Shown here: positions 2,617 through 46,436 of the stretch, in pieces
How positions within the stretch are numbered: the stretch's first letter is position 1
How the letters are laid out: each line of letters begins with the position of its first letter
Source of the DNA: Acidimicrobiia bacterium
GTDB lineage: Bacteria > Actinomycetota > Acidimicrobiia > Acidimicrobiales > SHLQ01
Length of the DNA stretch: 64,000 bases
Direction of reading: 5' to 3'
Assembly: GCA_033344795.1 (NCBI GenBank)
Contig: JAWPMS010000001.1
Coordinates: 2,147,645-2,211,644 of the forward strand
Position numbers and translations under genes: made by a program
Notes under the pieces: generated by a model
The model's input: only the letters and a program-made list of their open reading frames with translations
Told to the model about the DNA's origin: nothing
Database searches by the model: none

Positions 2617-3378
2617 TCAGGCCGTCCAGGTGGGCGGGCGCTTCTCGAGGTACGCCGCCATCCCCTCGGCGGCTTCATCCGAGGCGAAGAGCTGCGCTGA
2701 GCGCGCAGCAGCCCACACAAAGGCGTCGTCCGGGTGCATCTGGGGGATGCGCTGAAGGACATCCTTCGCCGCCGCGAGAGCGTTCGGGCCGCCGAGCAGG
2801 AGATCATCGACGATTGCGTCGACTTCATCGTCCAGCTGCTCGGGTTCGACAGCCTTGGTGATCAGCCCGAGTCGGGCCGCCTCGGCTCCATCGAATCTCT
2901 GGCCGCGCAAGAAGGCCGAGCGAGCGTCGCCAAGACGCATCTTTGGCAGACAGATCACCGAGATGATCGCTGGAGCGACACCGAGGCGAACTTCGGTGAA
3001 GCCAAACTTGGCGTCGACATGCGCGACCGAGATGTCGAGCGCGGCGGCAAGTCCGGTCCCTCCAGCCACCGCATGTCCTGCGATCCGTCCGACCCAAGGT
3101 TTTGGTGAGTCCTGAATTCGTCGGAACAAGGCAAGCGGGTCCACCGCTGCGCTGTCACCCGAGGAGGTGGATCGTTCACTGAGGTCGGCGCCAGCACAAA
3201 AGACCGATCCGGTGTTTGTGATCACCGCGACTCGAACCGCTGGGTCGGTGTCCACACGATCCATGGCCGCCACCAATTCCGTGGTCAGACCCTGGCTCAA
3301 GGCGTTTCGTTTGGCCGGGTCGTCGAGTGTGATCGTGTACACCCCTCGGCTGTCGAGACGTGTGTCGACGACGGTCAT
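2617..3378 (-). CDS. enoyl-CoA hydratase/isomerase (crotonase) family protein
   Basis: 253-aa ORF. Typical crotonase N-terminus ITLDDPAKRNAL and oxyanion-hole segment FCAGADLSE. Confidence 0.85.
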   Translation of the reverse strand: MTVVDTRLDSRGVYTITLDDPAKRNALSQGLTTELVAAMDRVDTDPAVRVAVITNTGSVFCAGADLSERSTSSGDSAAVDPLALFRRIQDSPKPWVGRIAGHAVAGGTGLAAALDISVAHVDAKFGFTEVRLGVAPAIISVICLPKMRLGDARSAFLRGQRFDGAEAARLGLITKAVEPEQLDDEVDAIVDDLLLGGPNALAAAKDVLQRIPQMHPDDAFVWAAARSAQLFASDEAAEGMAAYLEKRPPTWTA

Positions 3379-3479
3379 GCTGATCCTCTCGAGTCGTGTG
3401 CGGTACTGAAGTGGCCCCGTCAGTACCCTTCCAAACTACTATGAGCAACGCCTTGCCACGGCGCCCAGGAGGATTGCTC

Positions 3480-4718
3480 ATGGACTTCGACATGCCACAA
3501 GCCGATGATGAGCGTCGCGTGGCCGTCCGTGCGTGGATAGAAGCCAATCCGAATCCGAGCGACCGCGACATTGCAGAAGCTGGCTGGAACGTGCCCCATT
3601 GGCCCGCTCCCTTTGGCATCGATGCCGACCCGATGCACCAACTGGTCATCGCTGAAGAATTCGCGGCCGCCGACATTCGTATGCCCCTCAACCTCATTGG
3701 GATCGGCTGGGCGGCGCCGGTCATCTATCTGTACGGAACCGAAGAACAGAAGGAGACGTACCTGCCTGGGATCTTCAGCGATGAAGACCACTGGTGCCAG
3801 CTGTTCAGTGAGCCCGACGCTGGTTCGGATCTTGCGAGCTTGTCGACCCGCGCAGTCCGCGATGGCGATGAGTATGTGATCACCGGATCCAAGATCTGGT
3901 CGACCGGCGCTCATCACTCCGACTACGGAATATTGCTCGCACGTACGGATCCTGATGCCCCCAAACACCGTGGGATCTCCTACTTCATCTATCCGATGGA
4001 CACTCCAGGAACCACGTTGTCTCCGATCGTCGACATGACAACGGCGCACTCCTTCAACCAGGTGTTCTTCGACGAGGCTCGAATCCCTGCTGCGATGTTG
4101 GTGGGTGAGGAAGGTGAAGGCTGGCGGCTCGCAAAGGCCACCTTGGCAAACGAACGCGTCGGACTCTCGTCCGGCGGGGCGATATGGGGGCAGGGTCCAA
4201 GCATGGACGATCTGCTCGAGCTGATCCGAGCGAACGGTGGCGTCGCCGACCCGATCCTGCGGAATCGGACTGCTCAACTTCACATCGAGGCCGAAGTTCT
4301 ACGGCTCAACCAACTTCGCACGTTGAGCGCGCAACTTGCAGGAGAGACCCCTGGACCGGAAGCGTCCATTCAAAAGATCATGGCCGACGAACTTGGTCAG
4401 GAGATCATGGCCCTGGCCAAGGACTTGTCCGGACCGGCCGGAATGATCGAGGGTTCTGGACCGGCAGGCGCGATTCCACGGACGCGTCAGTCTGGCGCCA
4501 CCGAGATCAATTTCCCGCGTGGCCCCGACAGTGCATTTCCCGACGTTGATCCCGTTTGGCACTACGGCTTCATGTTCGGCCCGGCGCTGACCATCGGCGG
4601 GGGTACGTTCGCCATCCAGCGCAACATCGTGGCCGAACAGGTCCTCGGGTTGCCACGGGAGCCAAACGTCGAGCAAGGCCTCACCTGGTCTGAGACGAGA
4701 GCATTGAGCAGTCCGTGA
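3480..4718 (+). CDS. acyl-CoA dehydrogenase
   Basis: ORF 3396..4718. ACAD motifs FSEPDAGSDLASLSTRAVRDGDEYVITGSKIWST. Start set at ATG 3480 (MDFDMPQ). Confidence 0.85.
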   Translation: MDFDMPQADDERRVAVRAWIEANPNPSDRDIAEAGWNVPHWPAPFGIDADPMHQLVIAEEFAAADIRMPLNLIGIGWAAPVIYLYGTEEQKETYLPGIFSDEDHWCQLFSEPDAGSDLASLSTRAVRDGDEYVITGSKIWSTGAHHSDYGILLARTDPDAPKHRGISYFIYPMDTPGTTLSPIVDMTTAHSFNQVFFDEARIPAAMLVGEEGEGWRLAKATLANERVGLSSGGAIWGQGPSMDDLLELIRANGGVADPILRNRTAQLHIEAEVLRLNQLRTLSAQLAGETPGPEASIQKIMADELGQEIMALAKDLSGPAGMIEGSGPAGAIPRTRQSGATEINFPRGPDSAFPDVDPVWHYGFMFGPALTIGGGTFAIQRNIVAEQVLGLPREPNVEQGLTWSETRALSSP

Positions 4719-4767
4719 ATTTCCAACTCGAGCCGACCGGAAGCGTTCAGAGAAAGCAGCGACCGAC

Positions 4768-5904
4768 ATGAAAACTGCCATCACAGAGATGTTCGACCTC
4801 GACATTCCGATCTTGGCGTTCAGCCATTGTCGCGACGTTGTCGCGGCCGTGAGCAAAGCCGGTGGGATGGGGGTGTTGGGTGCGGTTGCCCACACGCCGG
4901 AGAGCCTCGAGATCGATTTGGCGTGGATCGAGGCTGAAATTGGTGACCGGCCCTATGGCGTCGACTTGATCGTGCCTGCGAAGTACGAGGGCTCGGATAG
5001 CGGCGGCGTGACGACCAAACAGATCGTCGATGCGATTCCCGAAGAGCATCGCCGATTCGTCGATGAAATCCTGGCGCGGTACGAGGTGCCACCGATGCCC
5101 GACGGTGAGCGAGGCGGCGCCTTGACCAACACCGAAGACGCGCTGTTCTCGGCCAACAATGCTGCTCCGCAGCTCGAAATCTCGCTCGCGTTCTCCTCCG
5201 CGCTGATCGTCAACGCCCTCGGACCACCGACCACAGAGATGATCGAGAGGTCCAAAGCAGCAGGGAAGAAGGTCGGAGCGTTGGCCGGCAGGCCGCAACA
5301 CGCAGAGCGCCACGTGAACGCCGGCGTCGACATGATCATCGCTCAGGGCTCGGAGGCGGGTGGTCATACGGGCGAGATCGGATCGATGGTCTTGATCCCG
5401 GAGATCGTCGACGCGGTCGGTGAAACCCCCGTTCTCGGTGCGGGAGGAATCGGACGTGGACGCCAGATGGCAGCAGCCATGGCTCTCGGTGCCCAAGGCG
5501 TGTGGTGTGGCTCCGTTTGGTTGACCACCGATGAGGCCGAGACCCATCCGACCGTGAAGCAGAAGTTTCTCCGGGCATCGTCGGCCGACACGATTCGCAG
5601 TCGATCGCGCACCGGCAAGCCAGCCCGTCAGCTCACATCTGCATGGACGCAGGAGTGGGAGAATCCCGAGACTCCCATGCCCTTGGGCATGCCAGCACAG
5701 CCGATCCTCGTCGACCAAGCGCTCGCTCGAATCGATCGTGCCGCATTCGCCGAAGACAGCGGCGCAGCGAAGCTCGCCAACTACTTCGTCGGACAGGTGG
5801 TGGGCACCATGAACGAGTCGAAGCCGGCCGCTCAGGTGGTCTTTGAGATGGTCGATGAGTTCATAGATGCCACGCAGGCGTTAGGACGGCTCCTCGACAG
5901 CTGA
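4768..5904 (+). CDS. nitronate monooxygenase (2-nitropropane dioxygenase) family protein
   Basis: 378-aa ORF. N-terminus MFDLDIPILAFSH…AGGMGVLGA and IIAQGSEAGGHTG are typical of the NMO/NPD family. Confidence 0.8.
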   Translation: MKTAITEMFDLDIPILAFSHCRDVVAAVSKAGGMGVLGAVAHTPESLEIDLAWIEAEIGDRPYGVDLIVPAKYEGSDSGGVTTKQIVDAIPEEHRRFVDEILARYEVPPMPDGERGGALTNTEDALFSANNAAPQLEISLAFSSALIVNALGPPTTEMIERSKAAGKKVGALAGRPQHAERHVNAGVDMIIAQGSEAGGHTGEIGSMVLIPEIVDAVGETPVLGAGGIGRGRQMAAAMALGAQGVWCGSVWLTTDEAETHPTVKQKFLRASSADTIRSRSRTGKPARQLTSAWTQEWENPETPMPLGMPAQPILVDQALARIDRAAFAEDSGAAKLANYFVGQVVGTMNESKPAAQVVFEMVDEFIDATQALGRLLDS

Positions 5905-5917
5905 GAGGTGATGACTC

Positions 5918-8638
5918 ATGACGGGAGAGCGTGAAAGCAGCGCAACAGCCACCCTCCCGTCTGGTGTTTTGACGGTGATGTTCACCGACCTCGAAGAGTC
6001 GGCCCTTCGATGGGAGCTCGATGCCGCGGAGATGCGGCGGGTGATGAACGTCCACGATGACGTTCTCGATCGCGCGGTGCTGGCTCACGGCGGGGTGGTG
6101 TTCAAGAGCACGGGTGATGGCATCGGCGCGGTGTTCTCCTCACCGGGTCAGGCCGTCGAGGCAGCAGTGACGGTACAGCGACAGTTACAGGGCGTTCCTT
6201 GGCGAAGCGAACGTCCCCGAGTTCGCATCGGAATGCACCTCGGCGACATCAGCCCGACGCGCGGCGACTACTACGGCGCAGACGTGAATCGAGCGGCCCG
6301 GATCATGGATGTTGCGAACGGTGATCAGATTGCTGTTTCCGCCGCGCTCGCCGAGTTCATCGCTCCCGAGCGTCGAACTGCATGCGGCGAGCACGAGCTT
6401 CGAGGTATCGGCAACGAATCGATTCACCTGGTCCGCGAGCCCGACCTGATCGATGACACCAGACCGCTTCGAGCCGTCGCCGTTCGGAGAACTCCTTCGC
6501 TGCCACCCGGGTTGGCTCGATCGGTCGGACGGACCCTCGAGGTCGACGAGATTGCTGAGCTCGTTCGCACGAACCGACTGGTCACCGTGGTCGGCGTGGG
6601 AGGGGTGGGCAAGACCCACGTTGGCCTCGCCGTTGGTCGTCGACTCGAACCGTCCTTTGCTGACGGCGCCGTGTTCGTGGAGCTCGGTTCAGTTCGCCAT
6701 GGCGACGACGTCGCGCCAGCTGTTGCGGCCGCTCTCGGAGCTCGGCTGCAGCCCGGACTCGACCTTCTCGACAGCATCGCCGACTACGTCAACGGTCGAG
6801 AGCTTCTGGTGCTCATAGACAATTGCGAACATGTGCTGGATTCGGCTCGGGCGGTCATTTCGTGCCTTCTGGAGTCGACCAATGTTGTGGTGCTCTCAAC
6901 CTCGAGATCATCATTTGGTGACTCCTACGAGCAGGTTTATCCTCTCGCACCGCTGGCTTCTCGGGATGGATCGGAGCTGTTCGCCGATCGTTCGGCCAGC
7001 CGAGATCCTCGCCTCGTTCCGACCACCGACGAGCGCGAGGTCGTCGCTCGAATCTGCGCCGCGGTCGGAGGCATTCCTCTTGGTATCGAGCTTGCCGCCG
7101 CCTGGGTTCGCGTCTTGCCGCTCGGTGACATCGCAGATCGACTCGAGCGGTCGCTCGACGTTGCTCGTTTGCAGCGAATCGCCACCGCCGGAGGGCGTCG
7201 CCAGGGTGCTCGGCAAGAGACTCTTCGATCAACGATCGAGTGGTCGTATCTCCAACTCACTGAACGCGAAGCGTTGTTGTTCGATCGGCTCTCGGTCTTT
7301 GTTGGCGGGTTCTCGATCGACGCTGCCCAGGCCGTTTGTGCTGGCGACGAACTTGAACCGGATGAGATCACCGCGCTCTTGATGGCGCTCGTAGATGCGT
7401 CCATGGTCACGGTCGAACGTGCGGTACACGATCGACGCTTTTCTACCTTGCGGCCGTTGCAGCTGTTCGGACGCGACAACCTCTCGAGCCGAGGTGAGGT
7501 CGAAGTGATGGCGCGGCGCCATGCGCGGTTCTTCGCCACCGCGGTTTCAGAGGCAAGTGCCCGCCTGGTGACCGACGACGAGCACGAGGTTTGGGACTGG
7601 CTCGCCGTCGAGTGGGCGAACGTTCGTGAAACGTTCGCGCGACTCCGACTCGATGGACAGCTCAATGACGCGGCACAGCTGCTCGTCGATCTCGGTTGGC
7701 ATGCGACCTTGTCTGTTCGCTCCGAGGTGTTTGCGTGGGCGGATGAGCTTCTGGCTGCGGATCGGTCGGACGACCTCGATGCCAAGGCATCACTACTGGG
7801 ACTTCGTGCGTTGCACAAATATTTCGTCGTCGATCCGGATAGTCGCTCCGACGCCGAACTCGGCTTGAGGCTCGACGGTGCCGATCCCGACGGATACTGC
7901 CGCATCGCCCTTGGCGCCGTGTGGGTCAACAACCAACACGCTGCGCACGAAAGCGAGCTCTGGACCAACGAGTGGCTCGCTTCCCTGACACCGAATTCTC
8001 CGGCGATGTCGAAACTGTGGGCGCATGGAATGCGCGCCTTTCATCTCTGTGTTCACGACCCCTTGTCGCCGAGCGCCCGAGAACACGTCGAGGCGATCGA
8101 GACGATGGCGGTGGAGAGTGGCAGCACGTCCGCTCGAGTACTCGCGCACTGGGCGAGGGGTATGTACGCAGTGTCGACCACTCTCGAGCACTCCGACGAT
8201 GTGCACGCGAGCACTGCCCTGGATGAGTGGCGAGCAGGACGAGAACTTGCGGAGTCGTTGTCCGAGGTCCACCTGCTTGCACACCTGATAACGAGCCTCG
8301 AATTGCACTTCACGGCCGCCGATGGCTCGGAAGGTGACGCCGTCCGCCTGGCGCGAGACGCACTTCGCCGAGCGCACAACCACCACTACCTGGCGGGGAC
8401 GAGTCATCTCTTTGGAGTGACCGCAATCGTGTTGGCACAGATGGGCAACGTCGATGTGGCGCGCCGCCTCCTGCCCGTCATGGTCGCGAACGGCCATCCG
8501 CCGCGTCAGAACGCTCTCGACGCGGTCGCGCCTGCTGACGGAGATGGACTTCTCCGCGAGCCGCCCACACTCTCGATTCACGAGGCAGCGCAATTGGCAG
8601 ATATTGCCCTGTCCCAAGCGCTGAGGGATCCAGCTTGA
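5918..8638 (+). CDS. class III adenylate/guanylate cyclase fused to P-loop STAND NTPase and helical-repeat C-terminus
   Basis: 906-aa ORF. Cyclase motifs VMFTDLEES…FKSTGDGIGAVF…YYGADVNRAARI. Walker A VVGVGGVGKTHV. Long alpha-helical TPR-like tail with no LuxR HTH. Confidence 0.8.
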   Translation: MTGERESSATATLPSGVLTVMFTDLEESALRWELDAAEMRRVMNVHDDVLDRAVLAHGGVVFKSTGDGIGAVFSSPGQAVEAAVTVQRQLQGVPWRSERPRVRIGMHLGDISPTRGDYYGADVNRAARIMDVANGDQIAVSAALAEFIAPERRTACGEHELRGIGNESIHLVREPDLIDDTRPLRAVAVRRTPSLPPGLARSVGRTLEVDEIAELVRTNRLVTVVGVGGVGKTHVGLAVGRRLEPSFADGAVFVELGSVRHGDDVAPAVAAALGARLQPGLDLLDSIADYVNGRELLVLIDNCEHVLDSARAVISCLLESTNVVVLSTSRSSFGDSYEQVYPLAPLASRDGSELFADRSASRDPRLVPTTDEREVVARICAAVGGIPLGIELAAAWVRVLPLGDIADRLERSLDVARLQRIATAGGRRQGARQETLRSTIEWSYLQLTEREALLFDRLSVFVGGFSIDAAQAVCAGDELEPDEITALLMALVDASMVTVERAVHDRRFSTLRPLQLFGRDNLSSRGEVEVMARRHARFFATAVSEASARLVTDDEHEVWDWLAVEWANVRETFARLRLDGQLNDAAQLLVDLGWHATLSVRSEVFAWADELLAADRSDDLDAKASLLGLRALHKYFVVDPDSRSDAELGLRLDGADPDGYCRIALGAVWVNNQHAAHESELWTNEWLASLTPNSPAMSKLWAHGMRAFHLCVHDPLSPSAREHVEAIETMAVESGSTSARVLAHWARGMYAVSTTLEHSDDVHASTALDEWRAGRELAESLSEVHLLAHLITSLELHFTAADGSEGDAVRLARDALRRAHNHHYLAGTSHLFGVTAIVLAQMGNVDVARRLLPVMVANGHPPRQNALDAVAPADGDGLLREPPTLSIHEAAQLADIALSQALRDPA

Positions 8639-36988: not shown

Positions 36989-39853
36989 ATGACTGACCTA
37001 GACAAGTATCCGCCGCTCGAAGACTGGCATGACGTCACGAGCCTCGATGCCAAGGCATGGCCGACCAAGGTCGAAAAGCACCACACCCTGGTGCCAACGA
37101 GCTGCTTCAACTGCGAAGCCGGATGCGGGCTCACCGCGTGGTTCAACAAGGACACCGGCGAGATAGAGAAGGTCGAGGGCAACCCGGAGCATCCCGCCAG
37201 CCGTGGTCGCAACTGCGCCAAGGGCCCGGCAACGTTGAACCAGATCTATGACCCCGAGCGGATCATGTTCCCGATGAAACGTGTCGGCGAGCGGGGTTCA
37301 GGCGGTTGGGAGCGCATCAGCTGGGACCAGGCACTACAGGAGCTTGGTGCGCGGCTGCGAAAAGCGATGCAGGAAGAGCGTCACAACGAGATCATGTATC
37401 ACGTTGGCCGTCCCGGAGAAGAGGGTTACACCGACCGCGTGCTCAAGGCGTGGGGCGTAGATGGCCACAACAGCCACACAAACATCTGTTCATCGAATGC
37501 TCGCATTGGCTACCAGAGCTGGATGGGCCACGATCGCCCGTCCGCCGACTACGCGAACGCCGAGGTTATCTTCTTGATCTCGGCTCACCTCGAGTCGGGT
37601 CACTACTTCAACCCGCACGCACAACGAATCATCGAAGCCCAACAAAACGGTGCCACGGTCATCGTCTGCGACCCGCGTCTGTCGAATACCGGATCCAAGG
37701 CAGACCACTGGCTTCCCACCTGGCCGGGCACCGAACCGTTCCTGTGCCTCTCGATCATTCATCAGATGCTTGAGGACGACACCTGGAACAAGGAGTTCGT
37801 CGAACGTTGGGTGAACTGGGACACCTTTCTGGCAGAAGAGTTCCCCGACATGCCCAACGAGTTCGCCTCGCTTGGTCCCGCGCTCAAGGCGCATTACGCC
37901 GAGTACACCCCGGAAAAGGCTGAGTACATCACCGGGATTCCCGCCGAGCAGATCCGTGAGATCGCCAGCATCATCGGCAAACACCCAACCAAGTTCGCCT
38001 CACACAACTGGCGTGCCGCGGGCGCGGGAAACATGGGTGGCTGGCAGGTCGCTCGATGTCTCTTCTTCATCGCCGTGATGACTGGATCGGTGGCCACTGA
38101 AGGTGGCACCTCGGGCAACGGATGGAACAAGTTCGCTCCGGCTGCGCCGCTCGGCGCACCCGGTATCGAACGCTGGAACGATCTCGAATGGCCGAAGGAG
38201 TTTCCGCTCGCCTATCACGAAATGTCGATCCTCCTTCCGCACTTTCTCAACGAGGGACGAGGCAAACTCGACACCTACTTCTCTCGGGTCTACAACCCCA
38301 TCTGGACCAACCCGGACGGCTTCAGCTGGATGGAAGCGCTCACCGACCCCGACAAGGTCGAGTGCCACGTAGCGCTCACGCCAACCTGGAGCGAGACCGC
38401 TTGGTTCGCCGACTACGTCCTGCCAATGGGAGTTGGCGCGGAACGCCACGATGTCGTCAGCTATGAAACACATCAGGGCCGGTGGATCGCCTTTCGCCAG
38501 AGCGTGTTCCGTCGGTTTGCCGAGATAGAAGGCAAAGAGGTCAACGCCGATTCTCGCACCCACGAGTTCAACCCGGGCGAGGTCTGGGAAGAGAACGAAT
38601 TCTGGATCGACCTTTCGTGGGCGATCGACCCCGATGGCGAGATGGGCATCCGGCAGTACTTCGAGAGCGAAGAGAACCCGGGCAAGCCGATCGGCGTGGA
38701 CGAGTACTACGGCAAGATGTTCGCGGAGAACGTTCCGGGGCTGGCCGAAGACGCGGCAGCCGCTGGCGAAACCCCGCTCGAGTACATGCGCAACCGAGGC
38801 GCATACGCGCTCGAGGGCGATCAGCGCACGCCATACGAGCGCGATGTCGATCCGTCGGCAGTGGAAGGCTGCGTCAAGGACGAGGGCGGTGTCTTTCGCA
38901 AGCCCGGCACATCCGCCATGTGGGACGGCACGCCGGAAGGTTTGCAGGACATCAAACTCGCGCGACTCGGCGACGGATCTCCCGCAATCGAGATCGACGG
39001 CGAGATCAAAGAAGGTTTCGTCACCCCATCGAAGAAGCTCGAACTCTTCTCGACGACGCTCAAGGACTGGGGCTGGCCCGAGTACGCCACGCCGAAGTGG
39101 ATTCCGAGCCATGTGCACTGGGAAGACCTCGATATGGAGCCCGATGCCGAAGGTTCGCTCGGCAATGAACGAATCCTTCTGCCGACCTTCCGCATCCCCA
39201 CGCTCATCCACACCCGTTCGGCAAACAGCAAGTGGTTGAGCGAGATCAGTCACCGTCACCCGCTCTGGTTGCATCCCGAGGACGCCGAGAAGCTGAACAT
39301 CGCAGAGAACGGCCTCGTGCGGGTCACGACCCGAATTGGCCACTTCGTGATCAGCGCGTGGCAGACCGAGGGCATTCGTCCTGGCATCGTGGCGGCTTCG
39401 CACCACATGGGCCGCTGGCGTCTGGAAGAAGACAAGGCCCGCAGCTGGGGCGCTGGTAAGGCTGATATCAAGTTTCCAGAGCGCAAGCCTGACGAGCGTG
39501 GCGTATGGCAACTCAAGCGTACCGACGGGATTCGTACGTGGGATTCCGAGGACGACGACACGAACCGCATCTGGTGGACCGACACCGGTGTGCACCAGAA
39601 CCTCACGTTCGCCGTACAGCCCGACCCGATCTCCGGCATGCAGTGCTGGCATCAGCGTGTCCGAGTCACTCCGGCTGAGGCGGGGGATCAATACGGCGAT
39701 GTCGTCGTCGACACGAACAAGTCTCGCGAGGCCTACCTCGAGTGGCTAGCAAAGACCCGTCCGGCCCCCGGTCCCAATGGCTTGCGTCGCCCGCTCTGGT
39801 ATGCCCGCCCGCTCAAACCAACTGCGCCGACCTACCTCAGCCCCGACGCCTAA
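36989..39853 (+). CDS. molybdopterin (Mo-bisPGD) oxidoreductase catalytic subunit without Tat signal
   Basis: 954-aa ORF. N-terminal FS0 motif CFNCEAGCG…C(AKG). No RR twin-arginine leader in the first 45 residues. Confidence 0.8.
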   Translation: MTDLDKYPPLEDWHDVTSLDAKAWPTKVEKHHTLVPTSCFNCEAGCGLTAWFNKDTGEIEKVEGNPEHPASRGRNCAKGPATLNQIYDPERIMFPMKRVGERGSGGWERISWDQALQELGARLRKAMQEERHNEIMYHVGRPGEEGYTDRVLKAWGVDGHNSHTNICSSNARIGYQSWMGHDRPSADYANAEVIFLISAHLESGHYFNPHAQRIIEAQQNGATVIVCDPRLSNTGSKADHWLPTWPGTEPFLCLSIIHQMLEDDTWNKEFVERWVNWDTFLAEEFPDMPNEFASLGPALKAHYAEYTPEKAEYITGIPAEQIREIASIIGKHPTKFASHNWRAAGAGNMGGWQVARCLFFIAVMTGSVATEGGTSGNGWNKFAPAAPLGAPGIERWNDLEWPKEFPLAYHEMSILLPHFLNEGRGKLDTYFSRVYNPIWTNPDGFSWMEALTDPDKVECHVALTPTWSETAWFADYVLPMGVGAERHDVVSYETHQGRWIAFRQSVFRRFAEIEGKEVNADSRTHEFNPGEVWEENEFWIDLSWAIDPDGEMGIRQYFESEENPGKPIGVDEYYGKMFAENVPGLAEDAAAAGETPLEYMRNRGAYALEGDQRTPYERDVDPSAVEGCVKDEGGVFRKPGTSAMWDGTPEGLQDIKLARLGDGSPAIEIDGEIKEGFVTPSKKLELFSTTLKDWGWPEYATPKWIPSHVHWEDLDMEPDAEGSLGNERILLPTFRIPTLIHTRSANSKWLSEISHRHPLWLHPEDAEKLNIAENGLVRVTTRIGHFVISAWQTEGIRPGIVAASHHMGRWRLEEDKARSWGAGKADIKFPERKPDERGVWQLKRTDGIRTWDSEDDDTNRIWWTDTGVHQNLTFAVQPDPISGMQCWHQRVRVTPAEAGDQYGDVVVDTNKSREAYLEWLAKTRPAPGPNGLRRPLWYARPLKPTAPTYLSPDA

Positions 39854-44604: not shown

Positions 44605-45135
44605 CTACGAGGAAAGGGCGTCTCGTACTGCGCCGATGACCTCGTCAGCGGACGGGTAGTCACCAATACGGGCGCCAACGCGGGACCAGCGCAGGTTGAG
44701 GTCTCGATCGATCAGGACAAGACCGGGTCGTTGTGTCGCTTCGGTCCAGATGGGATCGAAACGTTTCGCCTGGCGGACGGCCTGTACATAGGCCTTGGCC
44801 CCGATTGGATGGAACAACCTCCACCACTCGAACCGCTCTGCCGATCCAAGCAGTCGTCGTATCTGGTCATCGGGGTCAAGGAACAGCTCAACCCCGAAAC
44901 CATCCTCGGTCAACTTCTGCGCTTGGTACGCCTCGCGCGTCGCCACGCCGAGGAGCCGCACGTTGAATTGGTCGAGCTCGTCTTGACGCTCACGCAACTG
45001 CGAGAGCAATTCGAGGCAAGGCAGTCAGCCGTAGTAGCGGAGTACCTGCAGCAGGATCGGTCTGTCACCGAGCTCTGTCAGAGGTTGGAGCGTGCCATCG
45101 TGAGCCTGGAGGGTGATGTTCGCGAACGATGGCAT
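44605..45135 (-). CDS. peroxiredoxin-like (AhpC/TSA, PRX_like2-type) protein with in-frame TGA at the first redox position (UxxC): candidate selenoprotein, alternatively a nonsense pseudogene
   Basis: Track ORF 44605..45009 continues in frame upstream to ATG 45135. Reads MPSFANITLQAHDGTLQPLTELGDRPILLQVLRYYG-TGA-LPC-LELLSQLRE. TGA at 45025-45027 sits where this family has CxxC. Confidence 0.55.
44988..45007 (-). other. candidate bacterial SECIS hairpin GCUCUCGC-AGUU-GCGUGAGC
   Basis: Seven Watson-Crick pairs plus one U.U mismatch. Apical loop AGUU starts 25 nt after the UGA, with G at loop position 2. Confidence 0.4.
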
Positions 45136-45272
45136 GTGAAAGAAACCCTTCGAGTGGGCATGAACTTCCCGACTCTTGTTGCCTCGGTCTCAGCAACTCC
45201 TTTTGGTTGGGAAATCGCACGCGAGTTCATTCGGCTCATGACGCGAGTCGTAAGCGTGTTAACAATCATGCG

Positions 45273-46436
45273 ATGGCACTAGAGCGCACCGACACGATTG
45301 ACGACGATATGTCACGACTAGCGCCTTTGCCGGCGACACGTTCGCAATCGCGTGTACACGAGCGAAGACACGACCTCGATGCTCTGCGAGCCTTTGCAAT
45401 GTTGGCTGGTGTCGCGCTTCACGCCGCTATCGCCTTTGTGCCGTATAGCGCCACAGAAGGCGAGGCGTTCGCCTGGGGATTCTTCGAGTTCATACACGGA
45501 TTTCGCATGCCGATCTTCTTCATGTTGAGCGGGTACTTCACGGCCATGTTGTGGCGCTCTCGAGGGCTGCGTGGGCTTCTGTCGCATCGCATCCGGCGCA
45601 TCGGCATCCCGTTTGTGGTTGGGGTGTTCACAATCGTGCCCCTCGTACGTCTGTCGTATGTGGCCGCCGACGGACTCGTCGACGGGGCCGGTAGCCATGT
45701 TCCGGCGGCGATTACCCTCTCGCACCTATGGTTCCTGTGGTTTCTCGTCTGGATGATCGCTGGTTTCGCGGTCGCCGCTGCAGCGATCGATGCGGCAACC
45801 AGCGCTGGCTGGTTTCAGAAGTTGCTGTCCTCGCCGAAGCTGGTCCTGCTTGGCCTGGTTGCGCTGCCGCTACTGACGATCGTCCCGTCAACTCGAATGG
45901 CCGACGACGTCTTTGGTGCAGACTTCTCTGACACGTTCATACCAAACGACGGAGTGCTCGCCTTCTATACGGGTTTCTTTGTCTTTGGGGCCTTGCTCTT
46001 CGGCCGGGCGACGGCCTCTGGCGACGAGTTCATCGACGTGCTGGGTAGATGGTGGGGACTGCAGTTGCTGGTTGGTTCGCTTGTGTTGTTCCCGCTCGGG
46101 CAGTGGTTGATGCAGGACAATTGGAACGCTTCCGCGGTCGTTCAGGTTGCCTTTGCTTGGACCATGAGTTTTGGCCTTCTCGGACTGTTCCGCACGGTTC
46201 TGAACAGACAGCGCGCGTGGGTCAGCTGGCTCTCGGATGCGTCATATTGGATGTATCTGGTCCACCTTCCGCTGGTTATCGTGGGCCAGGGGGCTGCAAG
46301 CAGCCTCGGACTCGCGCCGATAGTCGCCTTCCCGGCGATTTTTGCTCTGACGACTGTTCTGTTGTTGATCTCGTATCAATACGCCGTCCGGTACTCACCG
46401 ATTGGCACGATGTTGAATGGCGCTCGGACTCGATAG
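45273..46436 (+). CDS. acyltransferase-3 family integral membrane protein
   Basis: ORF 45129..46436. ATG 45273. RRHDLDALRAFAMLAGVALH followed by about 10 TM helices. Confidence 0.75.
   Translation: MALERTDTIDDDMSRLAPLPATRSQSRVHERRHDLDALRAFAMLAGVALHAAIAFVPYSATEGEAFAWGFFEFIHGFRMPIFFMLSGYFTAMLWRSRGLRGLLSHRIRRIGIPFVVGVFTIVPLVRLSYVAADGLVDGAGSHVPAAITLSHLWFLWFLVWMIAGFAVAAAAIDAATSAGWFQKLLSSPKLVLLGLVALPLLTIVPSTRMADDVFGADFSDTFIPNDGVLAFYTGFFVFGALLFGRATASGDEFIDVLGRWWGLQLLVGSLVLFPLGQWLMQDNWNASAVVQVAFAWTMSFGLLGLFRTVLNRQRAWVSWLSDASYWMYLVHLPLVIVGQGAASSLGLAPIVAFPAIFALTTVLLLISYQYAVRYSPIGTMLNGARTR

Follow-up and report, generated by a model that had tools for sequence, protein, structure and literature searches.

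A stretch of 64,000 nucleotides from an Acidimicrobiia bacterium (contig JAWPMS010000001.1, positions 2,147,645 to 2,211,644), called the window below and numbered from its first letter, contains on its minus strand a gene for a peroxiredoxin-like (Prx-like) protein whose reading frame is crossed by an in-frame TGA. This is very probably a genuine selenoprotein gene with a functional selenocysteine insertion sequence (SECIS) inside its open reading frame (ORF). Two observations carry this reading. The UGA is conserved, stands opposite cysteine (Cys) in homologues and is flanked by coding sequence on both sides, and the hairpin that follows it is conserved, co-varies and fits the published model of the bacterial SECIS (bSECIS). 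The clade to which the gene belongs is best described as a further member, or a subfamily, of the Prx-like UxxC selenoproteins already known, where U is selenocysteine (Sec), mis-annotated as shortened throughout the databases.

Codon 37 of the gene is the sole in-frame stop between the ATG at 45135 and the final TAG (coordinates of all features are collected in Table 1), and it lies in the context ...PILLQVLRYYG-TGA-LPC-LELLSQLRERQ.... When the sequence was re-read, it turned out that everything the initial annotation had said about the letters was correct: the frame is open from ATG 45135 to 44605, the TGA at 45027-45025 stands in this context, and the loop of a hairpin begins exactly 25 nt 3' of the UGA with G at its second position. 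That annotation had further placed the TGA at the first Cys of a CxxC motif, and the alignment with the Cys of homologues described below bears this out.

Among 5.8 billion proteins searched, 24 homologues came up, 97-138 aa long, and every one spans just the C-terminal ~75% of the query; such headless records are what one expects if gene callers stop at the in-frame TGA. The DNA of the orthologues was read from the encoding contigs and from loci in genome and metagenome collections, which gave 14 non-redundant orthologues with 51-77% protein identity, among them one metagenome-assembled genome (MAG) labelled Acidimicrobiales. A single-sequence scan of the genome contigs had yielded no match, while an alignment-based rescan did yield loci. 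Codon 37 is TGA in 14 of the 14, within RY[YF]G-TGA-LPC-LELL, and a start codon lies 35-40 codons 5' of it in every one (exactly 36 codons in 11 of 14). The codon of Cys40 is TGC in nine orthologues and TGT in five, so this synonymous site is free. For the 20 remoter genomic homologues (31-38% identity), from Solirubrobacterales, Microthrixaceae, Nitriliruptorales, Nocardioides and others, the aligned codon is TGC or TGT, giving RYYG-C-LPC. The orthologue alignment thus holds TGA throughout and no mixture with broken copies, and where the initial annotation had envisaged Cys orthologues without a conserved hairpin as the case against a selenoprotein, TGA and hairpin were found together in all 14.

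The same pairing extends over the whole family. When 1.84 billion cluster representatives were scanned exhaustively with HMMER, just 73 family members emerged, 70 of which were scorable. More than half of these (39 of 70) are short forms which begin 1-23 residues past codon 37 and reach the C-terminus, and none starts earlier; five of the 39 start exactly with M-P-C, which indicates that the Leu codon after the U position is re-used as a start. Another 12 representatives are full length with CxxC, and the others comprise one CxxE, one SxxC and 17 fragments. At the first motif position, the alternation of UGA and Cys therefore pervades the family, and most of this small family appears to contain Sec, given the 39 of 70 clusters that begin just after codon 37. 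In a crude tree, drawn without support values, Sec and Cys forms seem to be intermingled.

Two loci stand somewhat apart. L034 (metagenome contig JAABUZ0100043100.1, 2336-2830) shares 26% identity with the window protein and has an in-frame TGA in HRHLH-TGA-LPCQER; its hairpin is a different one, GC-rich and about 22 nt 3' of the UGA. All relatives belong to Actinomycetota except L008 (CAXMRH010000148.1), a Sec form with 59% identity to the window protein from a MAG labelled Chthoniobacterales (Verrucomicrobiota), which reflects either mis-binning or horizontal transfer, given that its contig is as short as 3.8 kb.

The hairpin consists of GCUCUCGC (45007-45000), the loop AGUU and GCGUGAGC (44995-44988), and it is present in 14 of the 14 orthologues. 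To compare it among them, the 66 nt from the UGA were aligned without gaps, so that columns 21-28 pair with columns 33-40. It turned out that 87.5% of the cells are paired, against 17-58% in controls with the 3' arm shifted by 1-3 columns, and RNAalifold independently recovers the identical helix. Compensatory double changes occur in two pairs. Pair 25-36 is A-U in eight orthologues, G-C in three, G-U in two and U.U in one (the window), and pair 27-34 is G-C in 11, C-G in two and U-A in one. In codon 45, column 27 occupies the third, synonymous position, and column 34 opens codon 48, where the orthologues encode Arg, His, Gly or Ser. The silent site of codon 45 thus tracks the amino acid replacement at codon 48, so a base pair is maintained.

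Synonymous change is suppressed over the same codons. Gln46 is CAG and Leu47 is TTG in all 14 orthologues, while invariant Leu columns elsewhere use 3-5 codons. Mean codon entropy over codons 44-49 is 0.118 bits versus 1.28 bits in the rest of the gene, the lowest of 121 sliding windows, and the proportion of synonymous differences (pS) is 0.24 over these codons compared with 0.65-0.68 elsewhere. The bSECIS model demands a loop of 3-9 nt with G in its first two positions, usually followed by G or U, a stem of 4-16 bp, a distance of 16-37 nt from the UGA and a minimum free energy of at most -7.5 kcal/mol (PMC13188914). The window hairpin, with a 4-nt loop, a stem of eight positions with one mismatch, a distance of 25 nt, G2-U3 in the loop and a folding energy of -9.7 kcal/mol (20 nt; z = -2.4), lies within all these bounds. 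The bSECIS check that had been proposed at the outset therefore comes out in favour of the element, through a conserved hairpin, compensatory changes and agreement with the published model.

Several points weigh against a Sec-encoding gene with its own SECIS. The stem in the window has a U.U mismatch at position 5 of its eight positions and folds as 4+3 bp. Within its 43-nt context the z-score is -0.55, an unexceptional stability for a sequence of 61% GC. The conservation of the peptide LELLxQLxER accounts for part of the nucleotide conservation. Rfam gave no match at the gathering threshold nor at a permissive E-value, a null which is uninformative because bacterial SECIS elements are poorly covered there. 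ARAGORN found no tRNA gene in the 64 kb window, which is part of a contig of 4.87 Mb, nor in 19 related loci, and motif scans of the window and of related loci totalling 411 kb, for the SelB G1 box, the pyridoxal phosphate (PLP)-lysine motif of SelA and the SelD active site, revealed none of these signatures. Besides, the geometry of the redox motif comes from a structural model of a Cys-form proxy with 39% identity.

Folding energy was dropped as a discriminator of Sec and Cys forms, since Cys-form relatives are equally stable over the corresponding GC-rich stretch; the significance of the hairpin derives from the comparison across orthologues, not from stability. Concerning the Sec machinery, a tblastn search with an E. 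coli SelD query, which can serve as a lead only, was negative as well, and a naive scan of the window for further U..C or C..U candidates returned noise from non-coding frames only. According to a 2026 preprint, each of the 84 complete genomes from the order Actinomarinales, which belongs to Acidimicrobiia, carries selA, selB, selC and selD, so the Sec trait exists within this class.

The alternative that survives best is that the UGA is decoded without Sec, by a near-cognate or suppressor tRNA (for Cys, Trp, Arg or Gly) or through reassignment of UGA, the hairpin merely slowing termination. We consider it very unlikely. It can draw on the Sec machinery not being found in the window or the related loci and on the nucleotide after the TGA, which is C in 14 of the 14 orthologues, a context in which UGA terminates weakly. 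Reassignment, however, disagrees with the use of TGA elsewhere: of the 57 gene-like ORFs in the window, 40 use it as their stop, as do five of the 14 orthologues at their own 3' end, so that TGA is otherwise an ordinary stop and the recoding is local to codon 37. The hairpin, too, fits the SelB-type bSECIS model in both loop sequence and spacing, the pairing of UGA with Cys at the nucleophile of UxxC is the classic signature of a selenoprotein, and relatives of the family have been catalogued as selenoproteins in the Global Ocean Sampling (GOS) survey. Even slimmer is the chance that the genome has no SelA, SelB, SelC or SelD and that the UGA together with the AGUU hairpin drives Sec-independent readthrough, placing Cys or another residue at the active site; if true, it would be a bacterial recoding mechanism that mimics SECIS. 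Much more likely than such Sel-free recoding is that the clade forms a hitherto undescribed subfamily of selenoproteins, with a sequence-conserved SECIS of its own.

Another possibility is that the TGA is a true stop and that the product comes from just the downstream ORF, with TTG 45009 or TTG 44997 as its start, possibly alongside a separate upstream peptide of 36 residues. Frames of 134 aa and 130 aa from these two codons do exist and match the output of gene callers. The upstream segment, however, evolves as part of the protein. Among the 14 orthologues, codons 2-36 show a pS of 0.65 and a proportion of nonsynonymous differences (pN) of 0.345 (pN/pS 0.53), and codons 51-176 show a pS of 0.68 and a pN of 0.256 (pN/pS 0.375). 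L9, G14, L19, L28, Q30, L32, R33, Y34, Y35 and G36 are invariant in five sequences, and in the 14 orthologues L9, G14, L19, L28, L32 and R33 are each encoded by three or four different codons. Free synonymous change with kept residues indicates that the segment is translated in the same frame and under selection at the protein level. The Cys-form homologues are single polypeptides over both parts, and the 36 upstream codons align residue by residue with their N-terminus. The codon at 45009 is TTG in just seven of the 14 orthologues, the others having CTG, CTA, CTC or TTA, which were counted as non-starts, and a product of the downstream ORF would have neither the first core strand nor any of the redox motif. 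With this evidence, translation of the downstream ORF alone is highly improbable, and the 130-aa database record P0001, whose start lies inside the apical loop of the predicted SECIS, is an annotation artefact. Least probable of all is a dead or decaying nonsense pseudogene, which could appeal to TGC or TGT being one base from TGA, to the Cys forms in the family and to the shortening of every public gene call, but which sits badly with a TGA shared by 14 of 14 orthologues of 51-77% identity without any other stop or frameshift, with a kept start codon and selection on both sides of the TGA, and with a co-varying hairpin of suppressed synonymous change, unexpected for a dead gene. Both of the alternatives that the initial annotation had left standing, the pseudogene and the start at TTG 45009, are contradicted by the kept upstream codons and start and by the TTG count.

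A GGGTT motif at 45144-45148 (minus strand), about 9-14 nt 5' of the ATG, is common to nine of the 14 orthologues, namely the window, L001, L002, L003, L008, L029, L030, L035 and L036. An atypical ribosome-binding site is one possible role for it, some other 5' signal another.

With U read as C, the selenoprotein candidate matches Pfam AhpC-TSA (PF00578) with 33.8 bits (cutoff 26) and AhpC-TSA_2 (PF13911) with 28.9 bits (cutoff 27), so the assignment to the PRX_like2/AhpC-TSA family made from the letters alone holds. The best NCBIfam match is NF040769, "SelL-related redox protein" (80.4 bits, E = 1.2e-22). This is an end-to-end match over profile positions 4-172 of 173 with U/CxxC at the equal place, but it stays under the curated cutoff of 120, as does an actinobacterial Cys form (93.6 bits), while L034 scores as a member (150.6 bits). 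The score below the cutoff probably explains why annotation pipelines miss the UGA. A canonical peroxiredoxin carries Pro seven and Thr or Ser three residues before its peroxidatic Cys. This motif, PxxxTxxC, is absent here: in R33-Y-Y-G-U37-L-P-C40, Arg stands for Pro and Sec for Thr. Judged by its sequence, the protein is a putative Prx-like UxxC thiol/selenol oxidoreductase and not a canonical peroxiredoxin.

Among solved structures, prostamide/prostaglandin F synthase is nearest by sequence (9us9, E = 1.2e-6), and its CxxC falls on U-L-P-C in the alignment; TlpA and ResA come next. A structure was modelled for P0031 (LRYFGCLPCLEF), which at 39% identity is the nearest Cys form of full length, using a family alignment of 35 sequences. 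The model has a predicted local distance difference test (pLDDT) score of 96.0 and a predicted template modelling (pTM) score of 0.91, and shows a strand at 33-37 with Cys43 directly before a helix at 44-55. Foldseek placed PRXL2B first (template modelling score 0.73/0.80, root-mean-square deviation 2.6 A), then BCP/PrxQ and AhpC peroxiredoxins. In this model the C/UxxC motif lies at the N-terminus of the first helix after a core strand, where thioredoxin folds have their attacking residue.

Part of the domain seems to occur in other contexts too. P0038 (3325 aa), P0059 (856 aa) and P0086 (525 aa) contain repeated matches to query residues ~61-128, in 25, 7 and 6 stretches respectively, which suggests a repeated module in giant proteins that is related to part of this domain.

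For the selenoprotein reading, we propose the following mechanism. As the UGA at codon 37 enters the A site, the AGUU hairpin, acting as a bacterial SECIS within the coding sequence, would recruit SelB with Sec-tRNA(Sec) in competition with release factor 2, and the UGA would be read as Sec. The product would be a Prx-like oxidoreductase of thioredoxin fold with 176 residues and the active site U37-L-P-C40, in which Sec37, at the start of the first helix and just behind the first core strand, presumably acts as the attacking nucleophile. The oxidised substrate would convert the pair into a Sec37-Cys40 selenenylsulfide, to be reduced by a thiol reductant such as thioredoxin; the substrate may be a peroxide, an endoperoxide or a disulfide.

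Prx-like UxxC selenoproteins have been catalogued since the Sargasso Sea ("Prx-like protein") and GOS ("Prx-like 1") surveys, and a current review lists a "Prx-like thiol:disulfide oxidoreductase, PF00578, UxxC" as well as cd02970 "peroxiredoxin-like family protein" with UxxS. The window protein resembles the former in its AhpC-TSA fold, in Sec at the first position of UxxC, in its Cys homologues and in a predicted bacterial SECIS directly after the UGA. A GOS "Prx-like 1" read (...FHRHLGULPCRRH...) aligns with it end to end, the motifs falling in register, at just 25% identity; the FHRHLGULPC reads resemble L034, and the motif RYYGULPCLELL had no match in the searched part of the GOS sequence set. 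Unlike the GOS proteins, the clade of the window belongs to Acidimicrobiales-type Actinomycetota and has its own sequence-conserved hairpin with an AGUU loop. The cd02970 family shares the broad PRX_like2/AhpC-TSA_2 fold and a single Sec at the first motif position, while its listed description, UxxS, sets it apart from the UxxC of the window. PRXL2B (PDB 9us9, 9usa), a thioredoxin-like CxxC reductase and no classical peroxidase, is the closest solved structure by sequence and, for the Cys-form proxy, by fold; yet it is a eukaryotic Cys enzyme with ~24% identity, and nothing points to a shared substrate.

The SECIS of E. coli fdhF is an in-ORF hairpin just 3' of the UGA whose small apical loop carries G and then U. 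The predicted hairpin of the window likewise lies in the ORF and has a G-U loop. Unlike that of fdhF, its loop is farther from the UGA (25 nt), its upper stem has no bulged U, and its binding by SelB is a prediction.

A small hairpin was also seen among Cys forms. Many of those from Solirubrobacterales (L010, L012, L013, L015, L019, L024, L025, L027) have ACCUG-CGC-CAGGU at nt 19-31 after the TGC, an offset near that of the predicted SECIS in Sec forms, and the hairpin overlaps the Gln codon that corresponds to theirs. It may be the relic of a SECIS that was lost, or may arise by chance from coding Y-L-R-Q-V in GC-rich DNA.

The consequences lie mainly in annotation. For this family, the 24 of 24 close homologues and the 39 of 70 representatives are records without the active site, so predictions of domain, function and structure are systematically wrong, and correctable. 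Concerning physiology, the gene implies that an Acidimicrobiales-type actinobacterium of ~4.9 Mb and its relatives would decode UGA as Sec, extending within the class a trait so far reported for the tiny-genome Actinomarinales. As for method, the hairpin offers a clean bSECIS example with covariation and synonymous suppression, useful for training or benchmarking the bSECIS models, which are still weak. The general understanding of selenoprotein biology is unchanged, and a specialist would not be surprised.

Table 1. Features of the candidate selenoprotein gene, in positions of the window
Feature	Position	Strand	Remarks
Complete coding sequence, probable Prx-like selenoprotein	44605..45135	minus	176 codons; UGA-Sec = codon 37; assigned from sequence, Pfam and orthologue architecture
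Start codon ATG	45135-45133	minus	36 codons 5' of the UGA; position kept in orthologues
N-terminal segment, codons 2-36	45028..45132	minus	contains the beta-strand preceding the redox motif; same frame as the rest
In-frame TGA, predicted Sec codon U37	45025..45027	minus	first position of U-L-P-C
Cys40 codon TGC, putative resolving residue of UxxC	45016..45018	minus	invariant Cys
Predicted bacterial SECIS hairpin	44988..45007	minus	within codons 43-50
Apical loop AGUU	44996..44999	minus	identical in every one of the 14 orthologues; second base G, third U; presumed SelB contact
Shortened ORF of public gene callers (P0001, 130 aa)	44605..44997	minus	start = TTG codon 47
Stop codon TAG	44607-44605	minus	

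For the neighbourhood, the orthologous loci show a conserved order of an ArsR/HTH_20 regulator, a Zn-dependent dehydrogenase, a MOSC protein, usually a DUF2889 gene, and then the Prx-like gene, beyond which follow a convergent Amidohydro_2 gene, an AAA_16 protein and an NAD(P)HX dehydratase. This neighbourhood gives no pointer to the substrate, and a scan for promoters and terminators found nothing. At 36989-39853 (plus strand) of the window, about 5 kb from the selenoprotein gene, there is a gene for a molybdopterin oxidoreductase of 954 aa with an Fe4S4 domain, and in locus L038 a similar gene of 967 aa (3300-6203), with a Fer4/NrfD neighbour, lies about 1.3 kb away from the Prx-like gene. 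Each of the two genes is intact and free of in-frame TGA, which excludes a formate dehydrogenase of the Sec type.

In most orthologous loci the DUF2889 gene lies ~40 nt 5' of the selenoprotein gene on the same strand (for instance L001:5176-5838, L003:4797-5351 and L036:951-1613) and is possibly its operon partner. The window has a divergent gene for an Acyl_transf_3 membrane protein (45129-46436, plus strand) there instead of DUF2889. The start of this ORF at 45129 overlaps the start codon of the selenoprotein gene, and its Pfam domain begins at residue 81, so the true start of the Acyl_transf_3 gene is probably further downstream.

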